A DNA stretch of 50,922 nt from a virus (lineage: Duplodnaviria; Caudoviricetes). Both the position numbers and the translations under genes were made by a program. This document shows positions 1,557-50,922 of this stretch, piece by piece (position 1 is the first letter of the stretch; each line of letters opens with the position of its first letter). The notes beneath the pieces are model-generated. The model saw only the letters and a program-made list of their open reading frames with translations, was not told the DNA's origin and did no database searches. The DNA lies in IMG/VR virus record IMGVR_UViG_3300032122_000001, positions 1-50,922 of that record; one strand, given 5' to 3'.

Positions 1557-1621
1557 GGCAGGGCACAGCAAGGTGCGGCTAGGCAAGGCGAGGCGAGGTG
1601 CGGCACCGTACGGCACGGTTA
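1557..1621 (+). repeat. leader tract of 13 GGY-NN pentamers (putative guide RNA or autoregulatory site)
   Basis: GGCAG GGCAC AGCAA GGTGC GGCTA GGCAA GGCGA GGCGA GGTGC GGCAC CGTAC GGCAC GGTTA; candidate promoter TTGTTG-17-TAGGGT at 1518-1546. Confidence 0.85.
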
Positions 1622-1643
1622 TCGTAAAACGAAGGGGAGATAG

Positions 1644-2237
1644 ATGATTGTCAAGTTGGTTGCTAAGGGGACACGTCCGCTGCTGATGAGCAATGTTCGG
1701 ATGGCGTCTCCGATGGATCCTTACGCTAAGGAGCTTGCTCGGCTGAACAAGCAGAAGGCCAGTTCGAAGCGCACGGATGAGGATCGGCTGGAGATCGCTC
1801 GCGTTGAGTGGGAGGGTGGCCTGTACTTCGATGAGGAGTTGGGGCCCTGTGTTCCTGCTTCGTGGATTTTCAAGACTATTCTGGAGGCTGCCCGGTTGGG
1901 GCGGCGCGGCCCGAAGATCGAGAACGGTATTGCCGTTGTGGACATGATGCATCCTCTGATCTATCGCGGTCCTCGCGATTTGGAGGGTTTGTGGGGTGAT
2001 GGCGGTTCCAGTGGGCATGTCGATATCCGTAGCGTGCGTGTGAGCCAGGCGCGTGTTGATCGGTGCCGTCCTATCTTCAAGACCTGGGCTTTCGAGGCTG
2101 ATCTTCTTGTTGATCCGAACATTATTGATGTTGCGGAGTTGCGGGAGATCGCTATCCTGGCGGGTCGGTTGAAGGGGATTGGCGATTACCGTCAGCAGTT
2201 CGGGCGCTTCGAGGCCGAGATTGAGGCTTCTTCCTGA
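1644..2237 (+). CDS. solo RAMP/Cas7-like RNA-binding protein (Vipr-like effector)
   Basis: 197 aa; N-terminal beta strand plus G-x-x-PLLM, central P-x-x-W-I-x-K-x-I helix, C-terminal Gly-rich loop AG-x3-GIGDYR-x2-FGRF typical of RAMP folds; flanked by GGY-NN tracts. Confidence 0.75.
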   Translation: MIVKLVAKGTRPLLMSNVRMASPMDPYAKELARLNKQKASSKRTDEDRLEIARVEWEGGLYFDEELGPCVPASWIFKTILEAARLGRRGPKIENGIAVVDMMHPLIYRGPRDLEGLWGDGGSSGHVDIRSVRVSQARVDRCRPIFKTWAFEADLLVDPNIIDVAELREIAILAGRLKGIGDYRQQFGRFEAEIEASS

Positions 2238-2240
2238 CAT

Positions 2241-3015
2241 TGTGCGGTGCGGTTTGGTGAGGTCAGGCACGGCAAGGTCGGGCCAGGTTAGGCGTGGCTA
2301 GGTTAGGCAAGGGATGGTTGGGTGTCTGGTTGGCAGCTTGCGGGGTTCGATTCCCCGGCATCCGCTCCGGTTAGGCAGGGCAGGGCATGGCAGGGCAACG
2401 CTCGGTTTGGTGCGGTTTGGTGCGGTTGGGTGTTTGATTAGGCAGCTTGCGGGGTTCGAGTCTCCGGCATCCGCTACGGTTCGGTGGTCTCGGCACGGTT
2501 GGGTCTGGTGGGGCATGGTTAGGCGAGGTTGGGCGAGGCCAGGTGAGGTTAGGCAAGGGATGGTTGGGTGTCTGGTTGGCAGCTTGCGGAGTTCGAGTCT
2601 CCGGCACCCGCTGCGGTTAGGTGCGGCTCGGCAAGGTTTGGTGTGGTTAGGTTGGGCGAGGCCAGGTGAGGTTAGGCAAGGTTGGGTGTCTGGTTGGCAG
2701 CTTGCGGAGTTCGAGTCTCCGGCACCCGCTGCGGTACGGTGAGGCATGGCACGGTTTGGTGAGGTCAGGTTGGGCGGGGTCAGGTTTGGTGCGGTTGGGT
2801 GTCTGGTTGGCAGCTTGCGGGGTTCGATTCCCCGGCATCCGCTGTGGTTGGGTGGGGTACGGCATTGCGCGGTGAGGCGGGGCATGGTCCGGTTCGGGTT
2901 TGGTTGGGTGTCTGATTAGGCAGCTTGCGGGGTTCGATTCCCCGGCATCCGCTATGGCTGGGTACGGTACAGCATGGCGTGGCTAGGCGCGGTTAGGTAC
3001 GGTGCGGCAAGGTTC
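2241..3015 (+). ncRNA. VIPR-like guide array: seven GGY-NN tracts separated by six conserved ~51-nt tRNA-like repeats
   Basis: Near-perfect 5-nt periodicity. Repeats GGTTGGGTGTYTGRTT(A)GGCAGCTTGCGGRGTTCGAKTCYCCGGCAYCCGCT at 2316-2366, 2424-2475, 2562-2612, 2680-2730, 2793-2843 and 2902-2953. Confidence 0.9.
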
Positions 3016-3053
3016 CAGGGTTATAATGAGTTCAGTTGATGAAGGGAGGCTGG

Positions 3054-3620
3054 GTGTTCCAGTCTAAGGGTTCGGAGCCTCAGTGGAAGAGGATCTATGA
3101 TCATCTGAAGCTTCAGAGCATCGGTTACACGCTCACCCATGAGAAGCTGAAGGATCTTTCCGAAGGGGTCGCCCCCACCAGTGTTCATTCGAACCTGTAC
3201 CGGGCGATGCGGGAGCTGGAGAACGAGAACCAGCGCACGCTGATCAACGTTCGTGGTGTCGGGTACCGGATTGCTGAGCCTCGTGAGCACGAGAATCTTG
3301 CTCGCGGCAAGCACAAGGCGGCTCGGCGGCGTATCCGCGACGCGCAGCGTAAGGTCGCGTCGGCTGATCGTTCGCTGCTGACTGATGATGAGCTTCGTCG
3401 CCTCAACGCGATCGAGCATCACCTTGCCCGTCATGCTTCGATGCTGAAGCAGCTTGACGACAAGCAGCGGCGTACCGAGGAGCGGGTCGAGAGGACTGCT
3501 GAGCGTGTAGCGTACGCGGAGAAGAAGCAGCTTCAGGTTGAGGATCGGGTTGACCGCATGGAAGCGGCACTGCGCAAGCTGGGCATGTGGGATGATGACG
3601 ATTCCGGGTCTGGCCTGTAA
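3054..3620 (+). CDS. winged-helix DNA-binding protein with C-terminal coiled coil
   Basis: INVRGVGYRI resembles the OmpR/PhoB wing motif; GGGAGG RBS before GTG 3054; TATAAT at 3022-3027. Confidence 0.7.
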   Translation: MFQSKGSEPQWKRIYDHLKLQSIGYTLTHEKLKDLSEGVAPTSVHSNLYRAMRELENENQRTLINVRGVGYRIAEPREHENLARGKHKAARRRIRDAQRKVASADRSLLTDDELRRLNAIEHHLARHASMLKQLDDKQRRTEERVERTAERVAYAEKKQLQVEDRVDRMEAALRKLGMWDDDDSGSGL

Positions 3621-3880: not shown

Positions 3881-3918
3881 ACAGATACCCGTTACCTGTT
3901 ATGGTGGCGGGTATCTGT
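3881..3918. terminator. inverted repeat (terminator or operator)
   Basis: ACAGATACCCG...CGGGTATCTGT. Confidence 0.5.
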
Positions 3919-3932
3919 TATTGGAGGTTGAG

Positions 3933-4163
3933 ATGTCCGAGGCTCAGGTCGGTCCGAAGTACCGGCAGATTTACCGGGATTTGAAACGTCAGATCGACGC
4001 GGGGGAGCTGGCGGTGGGCGACAAGATTCCTTCCACGGCGCAGCTGTGCTTGGCGTACGGCTGTTCGGCAACTTCGGTCAACATGGCGATCATGCTTCTT
4101 GACAGTGAGGGCTACCTGCATGGCGTACCCGGCCTTGGCAGGTTTGTGAAATCCGACGAGTAG
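3933..4163 (+). CDS. GntR-family HTH regulator (DNA-binding domain only)
   Basis: Y.QI...L...I..GEL..GDKIPS...L...YG.S..SV..A...L..EG.L...PG.G.FV. Confidence 0.9.
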   Translation: MSEAQVGPKYRQIYRDLKRQIDAGELAVGDKIPSTAQLCLAYGCSATSVNMAIMLLDSEGYLHGVPGLGRFVKSDE

Positions 4164-4214
4164 ATCACCGGCTGGCGGTGATCGGTGGTAGAGTTCCCGA
4201 CGCCGGGAAAAGTT

Positions 4215-4245
4215 GAAGGCCCGCAGCTAGTAACTACGGGCCTTC
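4215..4245 (+). terminator. stem-loop
   Basis: GAAGGCCCG...CGGGCCTTC. Confidence 0.45.
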
Positions 4246-4343
4246 GATGTTTCTACCGGCACCCTCAGCATCCTCATTCATCATCATCATCAGCAGCTGA
4301 GGTGGCCTAAAGGGAAGTTCACATTCGAGGGGAACGATAGCAG

Positions 4344-39195: not shown

Positions 39196-39268
39196 CGGAT
39201 ACAGGGCTCAAGGAGGGCCGCCTGGTTTGGGACCAGGACACTGGTAGGTTCGATTCCTACGTATCCGA
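39196..39268 (+). tRNA. tRNA-Pro(UGG)
   Basis: cloverleaf; CCTGG-TT-TGG-GA-CCAGG. Confidence 0.9.
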
Positions 39269-39337
39269 CGATGGGGTCAACTCCCGACAAACTCGGAGTT
39301 GAGACAACTGAAGGCGAGGGCCTTCTACCTGTGACAT

Positions 39338-39411
39338 AGCGGGATGGTGCAGAGGTCAGCATACCGGGCTCATAACCCGAGTGGTCGAGGGTTCGAATCC
39401 CTCTCCCGCGT
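39338..39411 (+). tRNA. tRNA-fMet(CAU)
   Basis: 1:72 mismatch and three G-C pairs in the anticodon stem (initiator features). Confidence 0.85.
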
Positions 39412-39439
39412 CGAACGGTAGCGCGCTACAATATGAACC

Positions 39440-39835
39440 ATGGGTTTAACGGGGGCAGCGAAGCGCGAATACCAGCTTCAATGGATCAAGGCGCGACGAG
39501 AAAAGTGGATAGCGGAAAATGGGCCATGCCAAAACTGTGGACACGATGAGGATCTGCAAGTAGACCACGTCATCCCACGGGCAATTGGCGGCGGCATGCG
39601 ACCAGCGCTCATATGGTCAAGATCCGCCGAGATCAGAAACGGGGAGCTGGCAAAGTGTCAGGTACTCTGCAAACATTGTCACGATGCCAAAACAAAAGCA
39701 CAGATGATCACGAAGAAACATGGATCAACCATGTATCGCAATGGCTGTAAGTGCGAAGTTTGCCGCGAATCTCAGAGACTCAAAGCAAGGCGATTGCGAG
39801 CATTGGCAAAAAAAAGAACAGGCAAGCCTCCGTAG
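39440..39835 (+). CDS. HNH endonuclease
   Basis: CxxC...L.VDH.IP...GG...CQ.LCxxCH..K; C-terminal HG..Y..GC.C..C. Confidence 0.9.
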   Translation: MGLTGAAKREYQLQWIKARREKWIAENGPCQNCGHDEDLQVDHVIPRAIGGGMRPALIWSRSAEIRNGELAKCQVLCKHCHDAKTKAQMITKKHGSTMYRNGCKCEVCRESQRLKARRLRALAKKRTGKPP

Positions 39836-39898
39836 CTCAGTGGCTAGAGCAGCTGACTCTTACTCAGCGGGTCGAAGGTTCGATTCCTTCTGGGGGTA
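39826..39898 (+). tRNA. tRNA-Lys(CUU)
   Basis: GCTGA-CT-CTT-AC-TCAGC. Confidence 0.9.
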
Positions 39899-39936
39899 CG
39901 ATGCTTCGGGCATCAGTAGTTTGAAAACTTCAACAT

Positions 39937-40008
39937 GGGGGCGTAGCTCATCGGTAGAGCGGCCGTTTTGCATGCGGCTGGTAGTGGGTTCAATTCCTAC
40001 CGTCTCCA
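39937..40008 (+). tRNA. tRNA-Ala(UGC)
   Basis: GCCGT-TT-TGC-AT-GCGGC; G3-U70. Confidence 0.9.
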
Positions 40009-40120
40009 CGACCTTGGCGATTGCGGCCAACGGTTTAGAGCGGGTTCTGGCAAGAGATGTCCATGGCGTCCACCCGCTCGGAACCGAGCGGAGACGTCCG
40101 CAAGTGATCGCCAAGGGCAT

Positions 40121-40194
40121 GCCCCCGTAGCCTAATTGGCAGCGGCGTCTGACTTAGGATCAGAAGGTTGGGAGTTCGAATCTCTCCGGGGGTA
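40121..40194 (+). tRNA. tRNA-Leu(UAG), short variable arm
   Basis: TCTGA-CT-TAG-GA-TCAGA. Confidence 0.85.
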
Positions 40195-40262
40195 CGCATC
40201 ACGTCTCTATAGCTCTTTGCTATCGACAAATATCAAAGCGTGATCCACCTTCTGTGTCCTGA

Positions 40263-40334
40263 TCCCTCATAGCTCAACGGTTAGAGCACTCCGCTGATAA
40301 CGGAGAGAGCCAAGTTCAATTCTTGGTGAGGGGA
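40263..40334 (+). tRNA. tRNA-Ile(GAU)
   Basis: CTCCG-CT-GAT-AA-CGGAG. Confidence 0.9.
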
Positions 40335-40453
40335 CGGTGTCAGGAAAGGGTGGTTCCTTTCCGGTGAAGCGGTAGGGCCGCGACAACCAATCCTAGGGCG
40401 ACTGGTGTTCAGTCAGGGACGGTACCATCCCGGCGGCCAGTCGCCCGGCGCTA

Positions 40454-40525
40454 GCCGACATAGCTCAACGGGAGAGCGGCTGTCTTACAAACAGCAGGTT
40501 CTGGGTTCGATTCCTAGTGTCGGTA
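40454..40525 (+). tRNA. tRNA-Val(UAC)
   Basis: GCTGT-CT-TAC-AA-ACAGC. Confidence 0.9.
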
Positions 40526-40614
40526 CGGGGGAGCTACGGCTGTGAGGTGCCGTAGCCAGCTTGAGAGTGATCGCCTCAAGCTGAGATCCAACCTCCTTGG
40601 ACGTCCCGCACCAA

Positions 40615-40687
40615 GCCGCTATAGCTCAATGGTGAGAGCAGCTGTCTTATCAACAGTCTAGTCCGGGTTCGAATCCTGGTGGCGGCA
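40615..40687 (+). tRNA. tRNA-Ile(UAU)
   Basis: GCTGT-CT-TAT-CA-ACAGT. Confidence 0.85.
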
Positions 40688-40700
40688 CGTGGAAGCTAAG

Positions 40701-41039
40701 ATGAATGAGAAGATGGCGTTGACGCTGGTCTTTGGGGCGGCTGACGCGGCAATCGTAATGATCAAAGAAGAGCTGATGAAGATCAGCAAGCTGGCTGAGG
40801 AGAAAAAAGCCGCAGGAGTAGAAGTCGATGACATCTTCGAAGATGCCATCGAACCAGTCGCAGAGTATCTCCAGAACTGCGGCGAAGAAATCCTCTCACT
40901 GATCACCCTGAAAACCTTCTTCGCTTTGCTGGCCGCCGAGAAGCAGGTGGCAGCCCTGCGGGAAGAAAACGAGTCTCTACGTCTGGCCGCTTCCGAGGCG
41001 GAAGTGAAAGCAGAAACGAAGACTAAGAAGACCAAGTAG
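40701..41039 (+). CDS. hypothetical coiled-coil protein
   Basis: ORF fills the space between two tRNAs. Confidence 0.6.
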   Translation: MNEKMALTLVFGAADAAIVMIKEELMKISKLAEEKKAAGVEVDDIFEDAIEPVAEYLQNCGEEILSLITLKTFFALLAAEKQVAALREENESLRLAASEAEVKAETKTKKTK

Positions 41040-41045
41040 ATGTTG

Positions 41046-41119
41046 GCCCTCATAGGCAAATCGGTAAAGCCGCCATCTTCAAAAGCTGGTGTGTGTGCGT
41101 TCGAATCGCACTGAGGGTA
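41046..41119 (+). tRNA. tRNA-Leu(CAA), short variable arm
   Basis: CCATC-TT-CAA-AA-GCTGG (one mismatch). Confidence 0.8.
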
Positions 41120-41120
41120 C

Positions 41121-41375
41121 GTGACAGAAGACGAAGACATCGCTGGTTTGACGCCAGCAGACCTTGAGCCGTTATGTGACGGTACGCTCGACAAGTGTCG
41201 ACTGCCTTCTCGCTCCCCGCAGGAGCGAGCGGAGAGCAAGCAGCGTTTCATTGAAGGTTACGGGAAGGCTTGCGAAGCGCTAGAGGCAGCCTCCAGGGAG
41301 GCTTACATCCGTAACCATGAGACCGCTTTGGCATATGTGGCGATAGCCAAAGCGTGGAACCAGATTTCGTACTAA
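41121..41375 (+). CDS. hypothetical protein
   Basis: 84-aa ORF after a tRNA. Confidence 0.5.
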   Translation: MTEDEDIAGLTPADLEPLCDGTLDKCRLPSRSPQERAESKQRFIEGYGKACEALEAASREAYIRNHETALAYVAIAKAWNQISY

Positions 41376-41423
41376 CGACTGATGCTGGTCACGCAGTCCC
41401 GGCAGTAAAGTTGACTGCGTCAG

Positions 41424-41495
41424 GGAGCGTTAGCTCAGGGGTAGAGCATCCGCCTGTCGAGCGGAAGGCCACGGGTTCGAAACCCGTACGCTTCG
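41424..41495 (+). tRNA. tRNA-Asp(GUC)
   Basis: TCCGC-CT-GTC-GA-GCGGA; G73. Confidence 0.9.
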
Positions 41496-41521
41496 CGTCA
41501 CAATTCCATGGAGGGGAAGAC

Positions 41522-41650
41522 ATGGGAACTGCGCAGGAAAAGGCTCTGGCTGACCAGCTGATCGCCGAAGCTGACCGTAAGGCACGTGAGCGTGCAGAGG
41601 CAGCAGAACTAGCTGAGCGGGTACGTAAGGCTGAGAAGGAGTGGCGGTAG
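41522..41650 (+). CDS. small charged helical protein
   Basis: MGTAQEKALADQL..., GGAGG RBS. Confidence 0.5.
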   Translation: MGTAQEKALADQLIAEADRKARERAEAAELAERVRKAEKEWR

Positions 41651-41802
41651 TGGCTGAGGTAGATCGCCAGTCTGACCTTGACCGTGTCGCCCGGGAAGAA
41701 GCAGCCGTGAAGGCTGCTGAGGAACGTAGACAGGCCGCTGAGGCGTTGAAGGCTGCACAGCAGGCACGGGCACGGAAGATCCTCACCCAGAAACGCGATT
41801 AA
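41650..41802 (+). CDS. small charged helical protein
   Basis: GTG coupled to the previous stop; GGAG RBS. Confidence 0.5.
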   Translation: MAEVDRQSDLDRVAREEAAVKAAEERRQAAEALKAAQQARARKILTQKRD

Positions 41803-41809
41803 GCGCAAC

Positions 41810-41880
41810 GCCTTGTTAGCTCAACGGTAGAGCACCTGACTTCCAATCAGGGTACGCGGGTTCGATTCCCGTACGGGGCT
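41810..41880 (+). tRNA. tRNA-Gly(UCC)
   Basis: CCTGA-CT-TCC-AA-TCAGG; U73. Confidence 0.9.
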
Positions 41881-41946
41881 CGCATGAGGGGCCGTTCGCG
41901 GCGCGCAACAGCCGCAAGGCTGTGCTGACGGCCCCACCTTTTTCTC

Positions 41947-42017
41947 GCCTTATTGGTGCAACGGTAGCACGCCACCTTGCCATGGTGGAGACGTCGGTTC
42001 GATCCCGGCATGAGGCT
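41947..42017 (+). tRNA. tRNA-Gly(GCC)
   Basis: CCACC-TT-GCC-AT-GGTGG. Confidence 0.88.
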
Positions 42018-42038
42018 CAAGCGAACAATGTTCAGCTT

Positions 42039-42111
42039 GCCGTCATAGCTCATCAGGTAGAGCAGCTGTCTTGTAAACAGCAGGTGCGGGGTTCGAGTCC
42101 TCGTGGCGGCT
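42039..42111 (+). tRNA. tRNA-Thr(UGU)
   Basis: GCTGT-CT-TGT-AA-ACAGC. Confidence 0.9.
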
Positions 42112-42112
42112 C

Positions 42113-42292
42113 ATGGAAAAAGAGAAACCGTATCCGCAATTCACTAAAGAATTGATGGAACTGTTGAACAAGCATAGCCTCGATGCGGCCACGAGTACGC
42201 CGGATTTTCTGCTGGCCGAAATGCTTGTAGCATATTTGGAGGCGTACCGTAAGTTGCGTGTGTGGCAGATAGATTGGGAAAGCAAATTTTAG
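42113..42292 (+). CDS. small phage protein (59 aa)
   Basis: LLNKHS.D..TSTPDFLLAE.L motif. Confidence 0.55.
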   Translation: MEKEKPYPQFTKELMELLNKHSLDAATSTPDFLLAEMLVAYLEAYRKLRVWQIDWESKF

Positions 42293-42295
42293 GTA

Positions 42296-42517
42296 ATGGG
42301 AGTGATGCGGCCCATGGAGTATGAATGCGGATGTAAGATTTGCGCGCATCCTTGTGGCGAGTGTGGCGAGTTGTGCACGCAGGAGCATGACTTTGATGAC
42401 AGTAATTGTTTCTTCGATGAAGAAACAGATAGCCATTATGTTCGATGCCCTAATGGACATACTGTTTGGTTTAAGTCTATAGGACGCGGGAGTGATGCGG
42501 CTGGTGCCGCAGCCTGA
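42296..42517 (+). CDS. Cys-rich hypothetical protein overlapping tRNA-Tyr
   Basis: CxxC pairs, RCPNGH. Confidence 0.45.
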   Translation: MGVMRPMEYECGCKICAHPCGECGELCTQEHDFDDSNCFFDEETDSHYVRCPNGHTVWFKSIGRGSDAAGAAA

Positions 42518-42567
42518 CTGTAAATCAGGTGCCTTTGGCATGGGTGGTTCGATCCCATCCACTCCCA
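42488..42567 (+). tRNA. tRNA-Tyr(GUA)
   Basis: CCTGA-CT-GTA-AA-TCAGG, long variable arm. Confidence 0.88.
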
Positions 42568-42569
42568 CT

Positions 42570-42643
42570 GTGGCTATAGCTCAATGGTAGAGCGGCTGAT
42601 TGTGGCTCAGCATATCCCGGGTCAGTACCGGGTAGTCACCCCA
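42570..42643 (+). tRNA. tRNA-His(GUG)
   Basis: GCTGA-TT-GTG-GC-TCAGC; C73 plus encoded CCA; atypical T-loop. Confidence 0.85.
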
Positions 42644-42656
42644 ACGAGGGAGAGTA

Positions 42657-42824
42657 ATGACTGATCCACGGATTCCGATGCCGGGTGACTGTGCCCGGTG
42701 CGGGTACCCGAAGTTCATGCACGAAGACGACGAGCCGATGTCTGGGTGCGAGTTCTTGGCACCGGATGACACGTTGCGTAAGCAGCGTCTCCTTCTTCGC
42801 CGGGCGGTACGGGATAGTAACTAG
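42657..42824 (+). CDS. small Zn-binding protein
   Basis: CxxC...H...C, GGGAG RBS. Confidence 0.5.
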   Translation: MTDPRIPMPGDCARCGYPKFMHEDDEPMSGCEFLAPDDTLRKQRLLLRRAVRDSN

Positions 42825-42830
42825 GATTTC

Positions 42831-42913
42831 GGAAGGTAGCGATCATTGGTGATCAACTGGTCTTGAAAACCAGGCCATCGGAAACGATGAGGGTTCGAAT
42901 CCTTTACCTTCCT
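42831..42913 (+). tRNA. tRNA-Ser(UGA)
   Basis: CTGGT-CT-TGA-AA-ACCAG; variable arm CATCG-GAAA-CGATG. Confidence 0.9.
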
Positions 42914-42998
42914 CAACATGTGACGTGCGCACCCCCGGTGACGGGGGAGCTTAAAAAGCCGCATCCCGTCGCGCGGCACGCACAAAGCGGCGGGACTC

Positions 42999-43086
42999 GG
43001 AAGATTGCCAGAGCGGTAATGGGTCGGCTTGCTAAGCCGTAGCTGCGGCCATAGGTCGCACCGGGGTTCGATCCCCCGATCTTCCT
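42999..43086 (+). tRNA. tRNA-Ser(GCU)
   Basis: CGGC-TT-GCT-AA-GCCG; long variable arm. Confidence 0.9.
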
Positions 43087-43207
43087 CTTCGCGATCGGCG
43101 CAAGGAAGGGAAAGAGATGACCGAAAGCGTCTCCATCGACTGGTGAAAGGGGTGATGGTGTGAGGGTTCAGGGTCATCCTCCGTAGTTGGTCTACGGAAG
43201 GATTGTG

Positions 43208-43624
43208 ATGAGTCGTACGAATAAGGATATGCCGCATTGGGTGCGGGCCGAGGTGTGGAAACCGGACCACCGTTGCAGCGAGTACGGGTACCGTAGGCTG
43301 CGTTTCTGGCCAGACGGTTTCGGCGGTGGCGGCAGCGGGTGTGATCTTCCGGATTTTGAGCGGAAGGATACACGCTGGGTTCGTCTGCCTAAGCAGTGGC
43401 GTTTGTCTTCTCACTGCACGTGGCAGCCGGTGTGGGATCGTCGTAGCCGTGTTTCGGCACCACCGAAATGGTTTGTGGATCACGTTTGGAACAATGCTGA
43501 GCGTAGGCGTGAGCGTGACAGTCTGGGGAAGATGCGCCGGGATTACAACACTAACGGCATGATTGATGATCCTGATTTCGGTTGCTGGCAGACGCGTCAT
43601 TCCGCCCGATGGATGTGGAATTAG
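43208..43624 (+). CDS. basic Trp-rich hypothetical protein
   Basis: MSRTNKD.P.WV..., AAGGA RBS. Confidence 0.6.
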   Translation: MSRTNKDMPHWVRAEVWKPDHRCSEYGYRRLRFWPDGFGGGGSGCDLPDFERKDTRWVRLPKQWRLSSHCTWQPVWDRRSRVSAPPKWFVDHVWNNAERRRERDSLGKMRRDYNTNGMIDDPDFGCWQTRHSARWMWN

Positions 43625-43822
43625 GGGTCCCAGTGAAGTGCGTTAATGGGCACGTGTGGGAAGAGTGCACGTGTGCTAAAACATCAGAATTTCGACGGTT
43701 GCAGGATTCGCATACTCTGACTGTGACGTTTCGGGCGATTATGGCGGCTCTGGCAGTGGGCCTCACCGCCTATTGCGTGTATATTTACGTTACGATGAGG
43801 TGACGTTGAAGGGGGAGAGGTA

Positions 43823-44029
43823 GTGAGTCGAGGGAGTAAGCTGCCGCGCTGGATGCGACCGAAGTGTTCCGTGTGCGGCAAGACGTGGCGGGACTGCGGG
43901 CACGCGGGGTACGAGGACATCTACAGGCACAGGCTGTGGACCTTTATTGTGGGCGGCCTCTGGTCCCTGGTTAGCCTGGTCCTGATCGGTGTCTGCGTCG
44001 TGCTGCCGCTGATCAGCCTGTTTGGATGA
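43823..44029 (+). CDS. small membrane protein
   Basis: CxxC plus TM, RBS. Confidence 0.5.
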   Translation: MSRGSKLPRWMRPKCSVCGKTWRDCGHAGYEDIYRHRLWTFIVGGLWSLVSLVLIGVCVVLPLISLFG

Positions 44030-44424
44030 TGGGGGACCGCGACATGACCAACGATCCACGAGAGTTGATGCTCGAAGCAGCCGAGCAGATCAAATCTAAC
44101 CTGGCTAAGCGGGTAGACACCTCCGCGCTGGCGCGGGAAGCGGGCTACAGCAAGTTCCACTTCATCCGCCTGTTCCACAAGCACGTGGGGTACGCTCCCG
44201 GCCATTTCCAGTCCCTGTGCCGGGATGAGTGGGCCATGTGGCTCCTTCGGGAAACTGATCTCAGCGTCATGGAGATCGTCTACACCGTGGGCTACAGCAG
44301 CACCGGCACGTTCTCCCGCAAGTTCAAGCGCCGCTACGGCATGAAGATGGCGTCGTACCGGGACATGATGCGCCACTTCGATTCCATCCGAAAGGCTGAT
44401 GCGGTCGACCCCCCAACCCCGTAA
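44026..44424 (+). CDS. AraC-family single-domain regulator (MarA/SoxS-like)
   Basis: LA..AGYS..HF.RLF....G..P...R...A..LL......V.EI...VGY.S...FSR.FK...G; start may be 44044. Confidence 0.9.
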   Translation: MMGDRDMTNDPRELMLEAAEQIKSNLAKRVDTSALAREAGYSKFHFIRLFHKHVGYAPGHFQSLCRDEWAMWLLRETDLSVMEIVYTVGYSSTGTFSRKFKRRYGMKMASYRDMMRHFDSIRKADAVDPPTP

Positions 44425-44426
44425 GC

Positions 44427-44633
44427 TTGAAGCACAGGAAGGGGGAACAGGTGGTCACGAAGTTGTGGGCCTGGCGTAACCGGAAACTTGGAACCTGCAC
44501 ACACCGGTCGCCGCTACTGAAACTGTGGTGCTGGCGACAATGGAGCTACCAGCATCAATGCTACAAACACAACCGCAGCTGCTGGTCGCCAGTAAACGAA
44601 AACCACAGCTGCTGGCCGCGAAAGAAGACGTAG
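44427..44633 (+). CDS. small Cys/His/Trp-rich protein
   Basis: short ORF, start uncertain. Confidence 0.35.
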   Translation: MKHRKGEQVVTKLWAWRNRKLGTCTHRSPLLKLWCWRQWSYQHQCYKHNRSCWSPVNENHSCWPRKKT

Positions 44634-44719
44634 AATACTTTCGGGCGGGCATCCGAAGCACGAGGCCGAGGATGCAAGTGGACACGTCACGGTCGTCGTG
44701 TGCCCGTAACGACCGACTA

Positions 44720-44793
44720 GTTGCCTTAGCTCAAGGTGGATAGAGCGGCCTCCTCCTAAGGGGCGGATCCAGGTTCGAGTCCTGGGGGCGACA
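44720..44793 (+). tRNA. tRNA-Arg(CCU)
   Basis: GCCTC-CT-CCT-AA-GGGGC; A20. Confidence 0.88.
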
Positions 44794-44797
44794 CTGT

Positions 44798-44868
44798 ATG
44801 GGTTTGATGTAATGGCAGCCTGGCCGTTTCCAAAGCGGCATGTGGGGGTTCGATTCCTCCAACCTATG
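44798..44868 (+). tRNA. tRNA-Trp(CCA)
   Basis: GCCGT-TT-CCA-AA-GCGGC; G73. Confidence 0.85.
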
Positions 44869-44872
44869 CAAG

Positions 44873-44944
44873 CTCCCCGAAGCTCAACGGATGAGCAGCG
44901 GCCTACGAAGCCGAAGGGTGCAGGTTCGAATCCTGCTGGGGAGA
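44873..44944 (+). tRNA. tRNA-Arg(ACG)
   Basis: CGGC-CT-ACG-AA-GCCG. Confidence 0.88.
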
Positions 44945-44945
44945 C

Positions 44946-45018
44946 TCTGAGGTGGTGTAACTGGTAACATTCCCGGCTCTGAACCGGGCGACTCAGGGTT
45001 CGAATCCTTGCCTCAGAG
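44946..45018 (+). tRNA. tRNA-Gln(CUG)
   Basis: CCCGG-CT-CTG-AA-CCGGG; U1-A72. Confidence 0.9.
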
Positions 45019-45113
45019 CGACGCACCACCCGGCATCTAGCTAATGCTGGGTCACGGGCTCCCCGGCCGACATCATGGTGCTGATAAGAATAGAATTCTG
45101 GGGGGTCCACCAA

Positions 45114-45203
45114 TGCCGTGTCGTTTAAATGGCAGGACGCCACTCCCTAGGTGTCACTAGCATTCAGGGCGTGGAAGTGCGGGTTCGAATCCCGTCACGG
45201 CAC
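45114..45203 (+). ncRNA. tRNA-like RNA with a 35-nt extended anticodon arm
   Basis: intact acceptor (TGCCGTG/CACGGCA), D and T arms; anticodon arm 45140-45174 is 18 nt too long. Confidence 0.75.
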
Positions 45204-45209
45204 CTTTGA

Positions 45210-45282
45210 TGGCGTGTAGCTTAATTGGTAGAGCACTGGACTGTTAATCCGGTGGATGCTGGTTCGAATCCAGCCACGTCAG
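45210..45282 (+). tRNA. tRNA-Asn(GUU)
   Basis: CTGGA-CT-GTT-AA-TCCGG; G73. Confidence 0.9.
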
Positions 45283-45311
45283 CTCGGCACAACCGATTGA
45301 AGGGATAGGTT

Positions 45312-45623
45312 ATGCCCAGCGAAGAGGAAGTTCGTCGCGCCCTGAATGAGGAGCGTATCCGTCGCGAACGCCAGCAGCGGGAGGAGATGGAGGAGCGTAA
45401 GCGTCGGGTCTGGGAGCAGACGCAGCGCAAGCTCCGCGAGCAGCAGGAAGCTCAGCGTAAGGCGGCTGAGCAGGCTGAGAAGCTTCGGAAGCAGCAGGAG
45501 CAGGCCGAGAAGCTGCTCAAGCAGCAGGAAGCTCAGCGCAAGCAGCAGGAAGCTCAGCGCAAGCAGCAGGAAGCTGACCGCAGGCGCCGCGAGGAGGAAG
45601 AGCGTCGCCGCCGTAACAAGTAG
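45312..45623 (+). CDS. highly charged single-helix/coiled-coil protein
   Basis: E/R/K/Q-rich, KQQEAQR heptad repeats. Confidence 0.65.
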   Translation: MPSEEEVRRALNEERIRRERQQREEMEERKRRVWEQTQRKLREQQEAQRKAAEQAEKLRKQQEQAEKLLKQQEAQRKQQEAQRKQQEADRRRREEEERRRRNK

Positions 45624-45638
45624 TTAAGTGAGCCCCTG

Positions 45639-45863
45639 ATGGAGATGGTTCCCTTAAAGGGGCGCCCGAAGCTGGGACAGCATGTAGCGTTGCGTCGCCG
45701 CCGTAAGCATGCCCAGCCTCCCGGCCAGGAATACTATTGGGAGACTGGGCATGTTGAGATTGTGCGTCAGGGTGAAGTGGTCTACCGCAGTTGGGCTGGG
45801 TATGAGTTGACGGTACCGTTCAGGGATCTGTTTGAAGTTCCCCGCCACTGGGGGAGACGTTAA
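45639..45863 (+). CDS. hypothetical protein (SH3-like beta pattern)
   Basis: 74-aa ORF. Confidence 0.5.
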   Translation: MEMVPLKGRPKLGQHVALRRRRKHAQPPGQEYYWETGHVEIVRQGEVVYRSWAGYELTVPFRDLFEVPRHWGRR

Positions 45864-45872
45864 GGGGGTGCC

Positions 45873-46133
45873 GTGCCGAGGAAGGCGTTGAACGAGACGC
45901 AGGCGGCCGGGTTGGCGACGCTGGTTCTGGAGCAGCAGAACATCATCGATGAGTTGCGTGCCCATAATGAGCGCCTATCGGAGCGGGCCTCACGGATGGC
46001 GTTAACGCTACTAGATTTGCAGTGGATCAACCATGACCGGGAAGATCATGTTGGTGCGGCCGTGTCGCGGTGCAAAGACGAATCCTGCCGCAGGGTTGTA
46101 GAGTTGACGCACGGTCTCAGGCTCCCGTTCTAG
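45873..46133 (+). CDS. hypothetical protein
   Basis: 86 aa, RBS. Confidence 0.55.
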   Translation: MPRKALNETQAAGLATLVLEQQNIIDELRAHNERLSERASRMALTLLDLQWINHDREDHVGAAVSRCKDESCRRVVELTHGLRLPF

Positions 46134-46873
46134 TGGCCCACAACTATGTGTCGCTGTTTTCTGGCATCGGTGGTATCGATCTTGGCTTGGATTCGGCGGG
46201 CTGGCAATGTGTCGCCCAGGTCGAGAAAGACGCCTACTGCCGTAGGGTTTTGGCTCGGCATTGGCCGGGCGTTGACCGCCACGATGATGTGCGGACGTTT
46301 CCTGCCTGGTGGGGCAAGCAGACTCGACCTGATGTTGATCTGGTGGCTGCCGGGTTCCCGTGTCAGCCTTTCAGCAAGTTCGGGCTCATGAAGGGGGTAG
46401 AGGATGAGCGCTGGGGATGGCCCTGGACCCTTGCGGCCGTACGCCACCTTCGACCCAGATACGTCCTCTTGGAGAACGTTGCCGGGCTTCTACGGGACAC
46501 CGAAGCATTCAGCACCATCCTTGCTGATCTTCACGTCGTCGGGTTCGATGCGCAGTGGTCAACTGTTTCCGCATGCTCCGTGGGTGCGCCACACGCACGG
46601 GAACGGCTGTTTGTTGTGGCCTACGCCTCGGGCGGCGATGAGCCGATGCAAATGCCGGTACCGGGAGGAGTATCGCAAGGACGCTCCGGCATTGGAGCAA
46701 CGGGTGGCGCAGATGGACCGTTTAGCGGATGGCTACCTGAACCCGAGGTGGGTAGAGTGGCTAATGGGATTCCCCGCAGGTTGGTGCGAAGACCGTTAGA
46801 GGCTTTGGGTAATGCGGTTGTTCCTCGGGTTGCCGAACTGATCGGAAGAATGATCATTGAGGGGGAGAAGTGA
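46133..46873 (+). CDS. C5 cytosine DNA methyltransferase, large (alpha) chain
   Basis: motifs I SLFSGIGG, IV GFPCQPFS, VI ENV, VIII PH.RERLF, X LGNAVVP. Confidence 0.92.
   Translation: MAHNYVSLFSGIGGIDLGLDSAGWQCVAQVEKDAYCRRVLARHWPGVDRHDDVRTFPAWWGKQTRPDVDLVAAGFPCQPFSKFGLMKGVEDERWGWPWTLAAVRHLRPRYVLLENVAGLLRDTEAFSTILADLHVVGFDAQWSTVSACSVGAPHARERLFVVAYASGGDEPMQMPVPGGVSQGRSGIGATGGADGPFSGWLPEPEVGRVANGIPRRLVRRPLEALGNAVVPRVAELIGRMIIEGEK
46404..46799 (+). CDS. nested alternative-frame methyltransferase small (beta) chain
   Basis: ATG with GAGG RBS; LWPTP.A and LNP.WVEWLMGFP.GW (TRD/motif IX-like). Confidence 0.7.
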   Translation: MSAGDGPGPLRPYATFDPDTSSWRTLPGFYGTPKHSAPSLLIFTSSGSMRSGQLFPHAPWVRHTHGNGCLLWPTPRAAMSRCKCRYREEYRKDAPALEQRVAQMDRLADGYLNPRWVEWLMGFPAGWCEDR

Positions 46874-46875
46874 AC

Positions 46876-47037
46876 ATGGTGCAGTTCTTGCAGGTTTCAG
46901 CCATGATGGCAAGCCTGTACTTGGCTGCCGCTTCCTTTCGGCAGGGTGTCTCGTTTGATGAGCGCCGGTACCTGGTCGTCGCGGCTAGTAGCTTCTACTT
47001 CGCGTCGGCAGCTTTTGCCGGGGCAGGCGTGTTCTAA
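46876..47037 (+). CDS. small two-TM protein
   Basis: hydrophobic 53 aa. Confidence 0.45.
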   Translation: MVQFLQVSAMMASLYLAAASFRQGVSFDERRYLVVAASSFYFASAAFAGAGVF

Positions 47038-47044
47038 CGTTTAA

Positions 47045-47115
47045 GCCCTCGTAGCTGAGTGGTTTAGCTCCTTCCTTTTAAGTTGGAGACGCAGGTTCGA
47101 TTCCTGCCGGGGGTA
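47045..47115 (+). tRNA. tRNA-Lys(UUU)
   Basis: CCTTC-CT-TTT-AA-GTTGG; two U-U mismatches in the anticodon stem. Confidence 0.7.
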
Positions 47116-47233
47116 CGCAGGTAGCCGTTTGCTTGGATGGTGTCCGGCTGCTGGCTACAGGTTGCCGTCCACCTGTCTGCGCAAGGGCGGCTTCAACACC
47201 AACAGTGTATGATGGTTTATGCGGTAACGTTTC

Positions 47234-47307
47234 GGGGTGTCGGAGCAGCTGGAAAGCTCACCTGACTTTCAATCAGGAGAACACGGGTTCGAGTCCCGTA
47301 CACCCTA
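47234..47307 (+). tRNA. tRNA-Glu(UUC)
   Basis: CCTGA-CT-TTC-AA-TCAGG. Confidence 0.9.
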
Positions 47308-47330
47308 CGGGAACCATGAAGGGAAAACGG

Positions 47331-47858
47331 ATGAACTGGAAATTCTGGAAATCCCCCACCACAGTAAAGATCAAGGACATCGCGGACCTCGTGGCAGAGG
47401 CACCGGCAGACCGCCCAATTTTCAGCGAGAAGCATAAGCAGCGCCTACGGCTATGGGTCGCGGAACTACGCAGCGGGAAGTACGAGCAGGGACGCGGCTA
47501 CCTTTGCACCATCAAGACGGGTGGAGACGATGCTGGCAGCGAGAAGCTTTGCTGCCTGGAAGTAGCGAACCGGGTAGCGTTCGACAACGGTATCCCCGTA
47601 CCCTCCTGCGAAGTAAATTCACTGGAAAGGGAAGGGCAGAGTACCGACCTGGGCTTCCTCATCTACAAAGTAGACAAGACCGGTTGGGGGCAGGTTGGCG
47701 GTGTCATGCTGCCCGAGGTGGCCGAATGGTACGGGTTTACCGGAGGATGTCCGCACATTTCCCCCAACATGCACGCCATAGAAGCCAACGACCATCACCA
47801 CCTCACATTCCTTGAAATCGCCGACCGCATCGAAACCTATTACGAGCTCAACAGCTAA
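47331..47858 (+). CDS. phage hypothetical protein, paralogue 1 (QG..L..CCL family)
   Basis: W...LRSG.Y.QG...L...CCL.VA...P.V.EWYG...ND....F.EIA. Confidence 0.7.
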   Translation: MNWKFWKSPTTVKIKDIADLVAEAPADRPIFSEKHKQRLRLWVAELRSGKYEQGRGYLCTIKTGGDDAGSEKLCCLEVANRVAFDNGIPVPSCEVNSLEREGQSTDLGFLIYKVDKTGWGQVGGVMLPEVAEWYGFTGGCPHISPNMHAIEANDHHHLTFLEIADRIETYYELNS

Positions 47859-47891
47859 TAGTGTTTCGGTTGTGCCTATAATTGAATAGTT

Positions 47892-47966
47892 GGCCTGTTG
47901 GAGCTGTTGGCAAAGCTCACCTCAGTCTCAATGAGGAGATCGTCGGTTCGAGCCCGACACAGGCTA
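47892..47966 (+). tRNA. tRNA-Glu(CUC)
   Basis: CCTCA-GT-CTC-AA-TGAGG. Confidence 0.88.
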
Positions 47967-47982
47967 CGGAAAGGGGAAAGAG

Positions 47983-48393
47983 ATGATCAATAAGGAGAGG
48001 GTAGCGCTACTCGTCGAAGCGCTCAGGGACGGCAGCTGGGTTCAGGGGCGCGAGAGACTCCGTAACGGAGGAGATGAATACTGCTGCCTCGGTGTTGCTT
48101 GCGAAGTAGCTATCGCCAACGGCTGCGTAGTAACGGTTGGGCAGCACGACAATGGCTTCTACGTTTATGACGGGTTCAGCGATTTCTTGCCGCCGTCAGT
48201 GAGGGAATGGTATGGGTTCGTTTCGCCCGATCCTGCCGTAGGTAGGCTAAGGCCCATTGGCCATCAACCCGAAAACAGCATACGGCTCGCAGCCACGAAG
48301 GCAAATGACCTGCTGAATAAGAGCCTGGCAGAGATCGGCGAGCTATTCGAGGCTTGCTACATCAACGAGAAACCTATCACGATAATCTATTAG
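47983..48393 (+). CDS. phage hypothetical protein, paralogue 2
   Basis: same motifs as 47331-47858. Confidence 0.7.
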   Translation: MINKERVALLVEALRDGSWVQGRERLRNGGDEYCCLGVACEVAIANGCVVTVGQHDNGFYVYDGFSDFLPPSVREWYGFVSPDPAVGRLRPIGHQPENSIRLAATKANDLLNKSLAEIGELFEACYINEKPITIIY

Positions 48394-48522
48394 GAGAAGT
48401 CGTGGGACGCGTTTACATCTTCGGCGGATTCCTGATCGTCATCGCGGGAGCCGCTACCTACTTCCTGTTCCTTGCCAAAATCGGGCAGAAGATATTCAAG
48501 CAGAAGCAACAGAAGGGAAACG

Positions 48523-49485
48523 ATGAGCAACCGTAAACGGATCACCGCCAGCGCTCTCATCCTGGCCGGGGCGGTAGCCCTGACCGGATGCAGCACGGTA
48601 AGCGACAACCCGGACGATGTCGGCCTGTACTACCTGATGGGTAGCAGCGACGGCAACAAGTTCGACAAGTGCATCGAACCCGGCACTGCTGGCGATGCCG
48701 AGTGGAACAACAAGGTTGTCTGGTTGCCGACAAACCTGCGCACCTGGAACGTGGCCCACGAGAACGGCGACACGAACCAGCCGACCATTGTGTCCACGAA
48801 GCCGGAAGCCGGTCAGCCGTCAGGGGTTCAGGTGACCGTATGGTCGACCACGAACTTCTACCTGAACACGTTCTGCGACAAGAACGGCGGCATGGTCAAG
48901 GACTTCTGGGAGAAGATCGGCCGCCGCTATAAGGCTGACACTCCTGACGGGTGGAAGGCGATGCTGAACAACATCCTGGTACCGGCCCTAAATAAGGCCA
49001 CCCAGGATGTGATCCGCTCGTACGGCAGCGATGAGTTGGTGGGCAACATCAACGGGGTTAGGGCTGAGGCTCAGCAGAAGATCTCGGCTGGTTTCGCTAC
49101 CGAGTTGAGCCGCCTGACCGGTGGGAGTTTCTTCTGCGGTCCGAAGTTCAACCGGGTGACCGGTGAATGCCCGTCCATCGAGATGATCATTGTGGATGTT
49201 GACTTCGCTGACAGTGGCATCCAGGGCGCCCGTAATGAGAAACAGCAGGCCGTTGAGCGTGCTGCCGCTCAGTTGGCGAGGGCTCAGGGTGAGGCTGCCG
49301 CGCTGCTGGCGGAGGCTAAGGGTAAGGCGGATGCGGCTAAGGAGCTGGCGAAGCTTTACGCGAACCCGGCTTGGGTACGCCTCCAGGAAACGATCATGAA
49401 GACGCAGGCGTTGATCGAGGCTTGCAAGCAGGCTAAGGAATGCAAGCTGATCGTGGGCGCTGACGGCAACCTGATCATGGGTTAG
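48523..49485 (+). CDS. SPFH/Band-7-like lipoprotein
   Basis: signal peptide with lipobox LTGC; SPFH-like core and A/E-rich coiled-coil tail (A.GEA.A...EAKG.A.A). Confidence 0.75.
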   Translation: MSNRKRITASALILAGAVALTGCSTVSDNPDDVGLYYLMGSSDGNKFDKCIEPGTAGDAEWNNKVVWLPTNLRTWNVAHENGDTNQPTIVSTKPEAGQPSGVQVTVWSTTNFYLNTFCDKNGGMVKDFWEKIGRRYKADTPDGWKAMLNNILVPALNKATQDVIRSYGSDELVGNINGVRAEAQQKISAGFATELSRLTGGSFFCGPKFNRVTGECPSIEMIIVDVDFADSGIQGARNEKQQAVERAAAQLARAQGEAAALLAEAKGKADAAKELAKLYANPAWVRLQETIMKTQALIEACKQAKECKLIVGADGNLIMG

Positions 49486-49522
49486 TGTTGGACACCGGCA
49501 GCCTCACCGGCTGCCGGTACCA

Positions 49523-49594
49523 GGTGGTATGGCCGAGTGGTTCAGGCATCAGCCTGCAAAGCTGATCACGCGGGTTCGAACCCCGCTACCGCCT
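49523..49594 (+). tRNA. tRNA-Cys(GCA)
   Basis: TCAGC-CT-GCA-AA-GCTGA; U73. Confidence 0.9.
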
Positions 49595-49622
49595 CTCAAA
49601 AACCAGCCGAAAGGAGGTAGTC

Positions 49623-49973
49623 GTGGCAGTCAAGAACGCTTTGAGCGAACAGCCGCGTGGCACATGCCCTGTATGTCGGGGAACTTTCCAGGTCACCAGA
49701 GCCGGAGTCATGCGCCATCACAACGGCGATGTTGTTGTCCGGGGCGGCTGGCGGCAGGTCTGCGAAGGCGTGGGCGTGAAGCCCGCGATGTTAGGCACAT
49801 ACCTGTCGCTCACAGCCGATACGGACCCCGACGTTGCCCGTACCGTTGAAGTTTCCGAGACGCTGATGATCGATCTTGATCCGGATGGTTACGTGCTCGG
49901 CGTCGAAAGCCTAACAGGAGCCATCGGGATACCTGAGCTGATCCGGGTTCTTCAAACGTTGCGACACATCTGA
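49623..49973 (+). CDS. Zn-ribbon plus DUF2283-like protein
   Basis: CPVC...H...C; YL.L.....VA.T.EV.....IDLD..G..LGVE. Confidence 0.6.
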   Translation: MAVKNALSEQPRGTCPVCRGTFQVTRAGVMRHHNGDVVVRGGWRQVCEGVGVKPAMLGTYLSLTADTDPDVARTVEVSETLMIDLDPDGYVLGVESLTGAIGIPELIRVLQTLRHI

Positions 49974-49987
49974 CAAGGGGGGAAGCG

Positions 49988-50404
49988 ATGGGTATCAACC
50001 GCGAAAGAGTCCAGCTCCTCGTCAACGAGCTGCTCACCACCGACAAGGAGCAGGGGCCAAGCTACCTGAACGCGAACGGCCGATACTGCTGCCTCGGTAT
50101 CGCCTGCGAAGTGGCCAAAGCCAACGGCTGTGAAGTAAGCACCGCCACCTTCACCGCAGCAACCGGTACGAACATCACCGCTTACGACGAAGCCCACGAC
50201 GTGCTGCCTCCATCAGTGATGGAATGGTACGGGTTCACCAGCAGCGATCCGGCCATCACCTACCAGAGGCCAACCGGAATCGGCCGCGCCTATGGCAGAG
50301 TCAGCGTCGTTCTCGCCACGAACGCCAACGACAAACTCTTCTGGGACTTCCGGAGAATCGGCGAAGCATTCCGCGACTACTACCTCGACAACAACGACAC
50401 GTGA
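49988..50404 (+). CDS. phage hypothetical protein, paralogue 3
   Basis: INRERV.LLV..L, YCCLG.ACEVA.ANGC, LPPSV.EWYGF.S.DPA. Confidence 0.7.
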   Translation: MGINRERVQLLVNELLTTDKEQGPSYLNANGRYCCLGIACEVAKANGCEVSTATFTAATGTNITAYDEAHDVLPPSVMEWYGFTSSDPAITYQRPTGIGRAYGRVSVVLATNANDKLFWDFRRIGEAFRDYYLDNNDT

Positions 50405-50598
50405 TGTCCACAGGAAAACTTCTCACTGCACTTGCCGTGACAGCCATCGTGATCATGGGGGTCTGCGGCATCACGATGAGCATCCGCCAATCCACAGCAT
50501 TCGTGGACGACTGCGAAGCAGCTGGCGGACATATCGTCGACACCCACATCTGCGTCAGCCCCGATGGACGCATCATCGACATCCCACTCCGGTACTAA
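50404..50598 (+). CDS. small membrane or secreted protein
   Basis: TM plus C...GG......C...DG. Confidence 0.5.
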   Translation: MSTGKLLTALAVTAIVIMGVCGITMSIRQSTAFVDDCEAAGGHIVDTHICVSPDGRIIDIPLRY

Positions 50599-50687
50599 GC
50601 CGCCCGCTCAACCCGAAGAACCGGTAACCCTGTAAGATAAAAAACGCTGGTGGTGGTCGCAGGGGTGTCGACCGCCACCAGCATCAT

Positions 50688-50759
50688 CTTCGTGTAGCTC
50701 AACGAAAGAGCATCAGCGTCCGAAGCTGAAGGCTCCGGGTTCGAATCCCGGCACGAAGA
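50688..50759 (+). tRNA. tRNA-Arg(CCG)
   Basis: TCAGC-GT-CCG-AA-GCTGA; D-loop lacks GG. Confidence 0.8.
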
Positions 50760-50922
50760 CTCACGAATCCACGTCAGGATACCCAGTCAAATGACTGACA
50801 CGGTCACCATACTGATGCTGATAATGAGAACCTAACTCCGGGTGACCGTACAGCCGCTCAACCGGCTGATCCAACAGATGGAAAACCAGCTGAGCCACCC
50901 GCTGCCCAGCCTTCAACACAAT

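Follow-up and report, generated by a model that had tools for sequence, protein, structure and literature searches.

A phage VIPR locus with predicted anticodon-less tRNA mimics between its guide tracts

How can a virus that encodes several RNA guides in a row release them one by one, and what are the conserved spacers that keep such guides apart? Both questions are raised by a locus at positions 1557-3620 of a 50,922-nucleotide (nt) stretch of DNA (hereafter the window, IMG/VR record IMGVR_UViG_3300032122_000001), a fragment from a tailed-phage genome whose virus record holds terminase, portal, and major head and tail genes. All parts of the locus lie on the plus strand, in the order guide-vipr-array-vap. 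On balance, we favour reading it as a VIPR locus composed of a vipr gene, eight GGY/NN guide tracts and a vap gene with a predicted winged helix, in which the seven tracts downstream of vipr alternate with six anticodon-less tRNA mimics that are likely cut out by the host enzymes RNase P and RNase Z. Because the window’s terminase is closest to those of actinophages (~35% identity), this host is probably an actinomycete.

That the locus belongs to the VIPR systems is close to certain. As published, these comprise a gene for a minimal RAMP protein (RRM core, thumb and G-loop), a vap gene and YNNGG tracts of 9-16 repeats, and silence without a nuclease by placing one protomer on each repeat and skipping 1 nt of target (bioRxiv 10.64898/2026.04.26.720920); the VIPR papers to which an original prediction, made from the window’s letters, referred do exist and describe this mechanism. 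The window locus fits this definition, including the viral location that it asks for. The open reading frame (ORF) of 197 amino acids at 1644-2237 carries the G-loop GIGDYR..FGRF from which a RAMP/Cas7-like identity had been proposed, and this identity was borne out: in phmmer the protein matched SUSP1 Vipr (36pp_D) at E 9.8e-23, its family profile matched the same protein (PDB 36pp) at E 1.5e-36, and an AlphaFold model (pLDDT 93.8) had its best Foldseek matches among chains of the Cmr and Csm (type III) and type VII CRISPR effector complexes. As modelled, window Vipr folds like Cas7-group RAMPs, and in the alignment the SUSP1 GGY contacts R138, D177, W178 and R179 correspond to its R142, D181, Y182 and R183. 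We identified 233 Vipr homologues among 759 candidates; GGY/NN tracts adjoined the homologue in 14 of the 14 loci of the first homologue set, the check named in the original prediction, and among the further homologue loci listed four were without tracts, three of them with no more than 36 nt of downstream DNA. Together with the SUSP1 similarity, the RAMP fold and the vap gene, these tracts uphold the proposal of a VIPR-like system.

The gene had been described as solo, which it is not, because a conserved partner, vap (3054-3620), sits after the array. It encodes 188 amino acids from a GTG behind a ribosome-binding site (RBS), and its model has an N-terminal winged-helix-like domain plus a long helix, with weak Foldseek matches to winged-helix regulators (E 4.6e-3 or worse). 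Homologues of vap were found in 36 of 58 loci searched, and the window’s copy is weakly similar to the gene adjoining vipr in Felixounavirus bumzen (E 2.4e-4); Pfam has no family matching either Vipr or vap. The claimed absence of cas neighbours held, as no cas family was found among the 13 + 19 window proteins scanned (not all ORFs). CRISPR systems with Cas7-group RAMPs (Csm3/Cmr4) share the RAMP fold, the G-loop and the alternation of repeat and variable sequence; a CRISPR array was nevertheless rejected, since there is no cas gene among the scanned proteins, no CRISPR repeat in the Rfam scan of the window (tRNAs only) and no contiguous spacers.

Runs of 10-16 GGY/NN units are confined to 1557-1621 and 2246-3015 in the window. 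Chance repeats were rejected as their source, because in 30 windows simulated with an order-1 Markov model the runs reached at most 8 units, even under a laxer rule. The seven tracts reported earlier are present at 2241-3015, namely T1 (2241-2318, 14 units plus one GGG-AT unit), T2 (2367-2426), T3 (2476-2564), T4 (2613-2682), T5 (2731-2795), T6 (2844-2904) and T7 (2954-3015), and their NN strings all agreed on recount; an eighth, T0 (1557-1621, 13 units), lies in the vipr 5’ leader, inside the range covered by the original prediction yet undescribed there. The register break noted in T3 is real, a shift of 4 nt close to the 5’ end of the tract, and T6 has a 1-nt slip ahead of its final unit that had gone unmentioned. 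GGY, said to be constant, is nearly so, with G1 deviating in 5 of 97 scored units. T3 and T4 have their final six NN in common and flank identical spacers. Contigs of run X1, which may be the source sample, cover the array without differences, and contigs of runs X3 and X5 match parts of it, so an assembly artefact is unlikely; runs X4-X7 had no listed difference from the window.

The spacers had been described as six conserved repeats of ~51 nt with the logic of CRISPR. Six conserved spacers are indeed there, but they measure 48-49 nt and are predicted to fold like tRNAs: E1 (2319-2366), E2 (2427-2475), E3 (2565-2612), E4 (2683-2730), E5 (2796-2843) and E6 (2905-2953). By their sequence they are anticodon-less tRNA mimics, with an acceptor stem, a short D-like arm containing GG and a T arm, and not CRISPR-type repeats. 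The window copies show a compensatory change in the T stem, from G-C to A-U in E3, through a G.U intermediate in E2; E4 is identical to E3. True tRNA genes were rejected, as the elements lack the anticodon arm of a cloverleaf and neither ARAGORN nor the Rfam tRNA model (RF00005) called any of the six a tRNA. Their best Rfam match was mascRNA-menRNA (RF01684), at 16-27 bits (best E 0.014, four of six copies listed), below the 42.5-bit gathering cut-off; elements of two relatives scored 27-30 bits. A hammerhead array was likewise rejected, with no hammerhead ribozyme among the Rfam matches of the elements up to E 10.

The related loci found in three scans number 53 (8 + 6 + 39; designated by L numbers below). 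Four were set aside, namely L018, which nearly duplicates L002, L036 and L037, where the tracts adjoin real tRNAs, and L016, whose match was weak. This left 73 distinct elements adjoining tracts, in 20 sources. Fifty-three of them, from 19 loci, share one geometry, with six positions in the acceptor strand, a connector of 12 nt and a T arm; the remaining 20, the window’s included, differ in connector length. Across the 53 elements, 93.2% of cells were paired, compared to 76.3% after shuffling and 38-47% in slid controls, and both sides had changed in 12 of 15 pairs, counts that are partly circular as T-stem and acceptor pairing was used to pick the elements. For this reason the weight rests on contacts that were not selected for: a pair extending the T stem (columns 21-39) was present in 53/53, the single D-arm pair (columns 10-17) in 50/53, and a pair from the connector to position 60 (columns 18-33) in 42/53. 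Furthermore, G19, which was left free, stood opposite C56, which the selection required, in all 53, and all four rows with G55 had A18 in place of G18 (tRNA position numbers follow a mapping made in this analysis). A G close to the 5’ end of the elements is invariant as well, and their 3’ end reads purine-C-G, these bases being found in 48, 48 and 41 of the 53, respectively. This ending resembles that of the phage’s own tRNA genes, where C74 follows in 27/27 scorable genes and G75 in 15. These 28 genes are clustered at 39196-50760, and CCA is encoded in none of the 27 scorable ones, C74 being kept in all. A model built from the relatives (R1) found five of the six window copies at E 0.025 or better, with E2 alone not listed at E<=0.1, and it also detected an element in LittleE (E 7e-9), a phage that infects M. 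smegmatis, and weaker ones in Trine and MakoManhole, which infect Gordonia. It matched 0 of the 28 real phage tRNAs, and in the 178 kb searched its matches lay solely beside GGY/NN tracts.

What, then, do the elements do? Fifteen of 23 complete vipr-to-vap arrays hold them, and all 15 open and close with a tract. In Trine the order is element-tract-element-tract-element, the first element following the vipr stop codon directly with no tract ahead of it, and MakoManhole has a similar leading element after the stop codon, again with no tract ahead. Because arrays end with a tract and elements occur without a preceding one, this strict placement between tracts favours cutting signals over 3’ tails. 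We propose that tracts and elements are transcribed as one precursor, that RNase P reads the elbow formed by the D and T loops and cuts 5’ of each element, which would set the 3’ end of the upstream guide, and that RNase Z, or an endonuclease followed by trimming, cuts past the discriminator-like base and would so define where the following guide begins at its 5’ side, as in mascRNA. T0 and T7, which have no element downstream, would remain joined to the vipr and vap leaders or be trimmed off them. Vipr would form filaments on the released single guides and be steered onto rival DNA, likely that of competing prophages, satellites or rival VIPR loci; if the SUSP1 work holds here, one Vipr would sit on each GGY-NN unit, with NN pairing to the DNA, every third target base skipped and silencing achieved without cutting. 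Excision of the elements on both sides by host RNase P and RNase Z is, in our estimate, quite probable. According to the accessible part of a mascRNA study, both enzymes read the tRNA elbow and measure from it to their cut sites, and mascRNA is excised in this way (PMC11693755); in Streptomyces coelicolor, tRNase Z is present and 53 of 65 tRNA genes are without CCA, as given in the accessible part of PMC4681348.

The best surviving alternative, which we consider possible but clearly less likely, is that each element is retained as a 3’ tail capping its guide, a counterpart of the SUSP1 pseudoknot, with cleavage on its 3’ side only (by RNase Z or trimming) and RNAs of ~110-135 nt as a result. 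Every vrRNA of SUSP1 is capped by a folded tail that can be seen in the ternary complex, and an element does lie behind the final tract in Trine, in MakoManhole and in the upstream array of LittleE. Cleavage 5’ of the element might also be impeded: the acceptor-T stack has 11 base pairs (bp), with the extra top pair formed in 16 of 53 elements, compared to 12 bp in tRNA, and this mismatched top pair could hinder RNase P; access to the cut site might also be blocked by a Vipr filament lying on the leader. However, T0, T7 and the final tract of all 15 element-bearing arrays would then have no tail, the leading elements of Trine and MakoManhole would have no guide to cap, and a cap has no need for a conserved tRNA elbow.

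We also compared the window with run X2, a near-identical strain, in which nine substitutions were listed: seven at NN, one T/C change at Y, one in vap and none at GG. T0 is short of two whole units in this strain, and four bases are absent at the register break of T3, so that T3 is in register, starts like T4 and ends like T3. These differences rest on two contigs at a depth of 2.7-4.4. They point to guides changing by recombination and whole-unit loss between tracts, and give a first hint of new guides arising by tract recombination. The wider proposition, that an actinophage VIPR has evolved a natural polycistronic tRNA-guide array, with elbow mimics of 46-49 nt that are useless to the ribosome and guides freed by the host tRNA machinery, and that it is reprogrammed without Cas1 by recombining or deleting pentamer blocks between tracts, seems to us evenly balanced.

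Which DNA the guides address was investigated with a criterion of at least 80% NN match under the rule that 1 nt is skipped. The gapped search suggested in the original prediction came out negative for the window guides: the collection searches, which covered T1 and T3-T7, gave no target at this level, the best matches being 9/14, 10/13, 9/13, 8/11 and 10/13 NN. In IMG/VR, exact 8-NN cores gave 7 hits for T5, 11 for T1, 14 and 48 for T3, 7 for T6 and 4 for T7, and in these six scans, on T1, T3 and T5-T7, extension reached at most 10/13 NN. Genome samples were not above controls: at up to 3 mismatches T5 and T1 had hits in 0/81 each, and T4 in 1/101 compared to 2 control hits. The site of this T4 hit lies just upstream of an ORF resembling a phage lysin and is present in 2/10 genomes from the genus concerned; it was rejected as a target, as it matched 9/14 NN and had no second guide match in the 200 kb around it. 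Self-targets in the window at a 1-nt skip matched at best 6-7 of 11-14 NN, and when the guides were decoded to peptides and compared with 250 reading frames of the window, nothing emerged (p was 0.03 at the lowest, in 16 tests). TA makes up 13 of the 103 NN in the window array, compared to 4.3% in relatives; this excess fits poorly with codon positions 1-2 of GC-rich genes, so the targets of these guides may be non-coding or AT-richer DNA.

Relatives were more informative about the code. One guide recurs in unrelated loci (L009 1614, L023 1560, L025 3193, L026 1155 and L027 692; five compared). Read with the skip at the wobble base, it decodes to AHExGH, the HExxH motif of IrrE/ImmA-type proteases. 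Its 9-NN core had 11 exact hits, compared to 4-48 for the 8-NN cores of the window, the extra dinucleotide being expected to cut chance hits ~16-fold. Five of 10 scanned frames were Peptidase_M78 (IrrE N-terminal-like, HTH-Peptidase_M78 genes), the two best matching 12/14 NN in frame; the guide was picked after the motif had been recognised, and its hits are not shown to be actinobacterial. A target was found in 0/201 class genomes and in 0/5 further sequence sets. The guide suggests a common target in the induction switches of prophages or mobile elements, and the 1-nt-skip code appears to hold in this clade. Another guide, in L004 (4584-4643), spells the codons of the Vipr G-loop, matching 9/12 on the vipr of L010 and 7/12 on its own vipr; it is likely an anti-VIPR guide and resembles the vipr-targeting guides described in the accessible part of bioRxiv 10.64898/2026.10.15.759431.

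Several observations weigh against our reading, among them the short stack, the partly circular pairing counts and the low depth of the X2 contigs already mentioned. Single window copies fold no better than shuffled sequences (z -0.35 to 0.76), and minimum-energy folds form both T arm and acceptor stem in just three of six copies, which also have a longer connector and are without the column 18-33 pair. The close Vipr relatives L001, L016, L019, L023 and L025 carry other spacers, so the tRNA-like element is dispensable within the clade. One possible RNA run held short pieces only, and no transcript or cut site was observed. In window Vipr, Ser16 replaces SUSP1 H17, which is His in 107 of 108 aligned proteins, and Ala32 aligns to K33 of SUSP1, likewise a GGY contact, in a variable column. 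Ser16 is not a lone error, because contigs of X1, X2 and X10 list no difference at its codon (1689-1691).

These last points raise the prospect, in our view improbable, that the locus is weakened or decaying in this lineage, with a Ser16 Vipr that binds GGY poorly, an array drifting by duplication and guides that no longer match targets. According to the accessible part of the SUSP1 structural study, H17 touches G1 of the GGY repeat (bioRxiv 10.64898/2026.04.26.720927), and the T3 register break, the six NN common to T3 and T4, the identity of E3 and E4 and the absence of targets for the window guides would all be in keeping with decay. However, neither the vipr ORF nor vap is disrupted, window Vipr retains D181 and R142, the counterparts of essential SUSP1 residues, and G1 deviations are no commoner than in relatives (167 of 2387 units). 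Moreover, the X2 strain keeps GG while NN change, the covered stretches of its vipr have no listed substitution, and missing targets say little. Least credible is a different role for the elements, either as recombination anchors or as decoys that draw off tRNA-binding proteins or host defences attacking tRNA, with guides maturing by Vipr footprinting as in staggered arrays: the phage has 28 tRNA genes, the recombined tracts T3 and T4 are flanked by identical elements and related arrays work without an element, but model R1 matches beside GGY/NN tracts and at no tRNA gene, the elements are without an anticodon arm, and the copies of a single array, in most relatives, vary in sequence yet keep the fold, which speaks for structure over homology.

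How does this architecture relate to known systems? VIPR itself is published, and on our analysis the tRNA-mimic array would be a new variant with a proposed mechanism. The published array kinds are type II tailed (pseudoknot), staggered, hammerhead-interspersed and single-guide (bioRxiv 10.64898/2026.04.26.720920). Neither ‘tRNA’ nor ‘RNase P’ occurs in the main text or supplement text of the discovery preprint, whose figure images and data S1-S4 could show such spacers, or in the accessible text of two other VIPR preprints, and ‘tRNA-like’ does not occur in the accessible part of a genomic-language-model survey covering VIPR arrays; literature searches on vrRNA/Vipr and tRNA-like elements, whose coverage mostly excludes subscription papers, gave no further VIPR paper. 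The type II VIPR of Escherichia phage SUSP1 and a Pseudomonas fulva prophage resembles the window locus in its homologous Vipr, its phage-encoded GGY/NN tracts of 11-15 units, one guide upstream with the array downstream, and a vap of DNA-binding type. It differs in its order, guide-vipr-vap-array, and in an invariant 3’ pseudoknot tail of ~40 nt after each guide, whereas the window has tRNA-like elements between guides and none after T0 or T7. Felixounavirus Vipr proteins have ~32% identity to window Vipr, and the tails of Felixounavirus bumzen differ too. In hammerhead-interspersed and staggered arrays, as far as the accessible part of the discovery preprint shows them (figs S18-S20), structured RNA between guides also frees them; the hammerhead is a self-cleaving ribozyme, whereas the tRNA-elbow mimic is predicted to need host nucleases.

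Outside VIPR, mascRNA/menRNA is likewise a small tRNA mimic with a reduced D arm, a GG/T-loop elbow and an acceptor-T stack, and when RNase P and RNase Z cut it out, the end of the RNA next to it is fixed, according to the accessible part of PMC11693755. It belongs to a vertebrate long non-coding RNA, and the window element is without any stem equivalent to the anticodon arm; the latter is a structural analogue of mascRNA, not a member of its family. Engineered polycistronic tRNA-gRNA arrays, for which PMC13032600 is one listed source, also place tRNA units between guides that host tRNA-processing enzymes set free; these are man-made, with whole tRNAs and Cas9/Cas13 guides, whereas the window array is natural, minimal and linked to VIPR. 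Maturation by the host tRNA machinery, if true, would add a third route to those by pseudoknot tails and hammerheads, and since RNase P is essential, the host would find it hard to turn this route off; actinobacterial guide arrays would also gain a natural multiplexing unit of ~48 nt. As the cultured phages LittleE, Trine and MakoManhole carry the element too, this is directly testable.

Spacers of other kinds also occur between tracts of related loci. A second class forms a long hairpin with internal loops and a conserved outline (L004 4930-5135, L010 4953-5515, L011 5158-5530 and L034 3133-3664); the L034 spacer had no Rfam match, and the class may serve in processing too, for example as a site for RNase III. 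A third class, of ~30 nt with a common short motif, separates tracts in L019, L023, L025 and L026; it occurs in Vipr relatives nested among tRNA-mimic loci, and L026 mixes both classes. In a clade with Vipr of ~30% identity (L006, L008, L052 and L053), tracts end in a constant 10-nt motif and not in a folded element. In L036 (3462-4541) and L037 (3741-3884), GGY/NN tracts lie between apparent full tRNA genes, a possible origin of the mimics. Gene 40 of Trine (L097 2591-3394) as annotated spans the guide array, and a vap-like ORF seems to begin near 2888, so the annotated start is probably wrong.

Around the window array, a promoter scan found nothing at the array itself. A perfect TATAAT hexamer lies at 3022-3027, between T7 and the vap RBS, and was not listed by that scan; judging from this hexamer, vap may have a promoter of its own. 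Further downstream, two strong hairpins (3881-3918 and 4207-4253), which are probably terminators, lie on either side of a small GntR-family gene (3921-4163).

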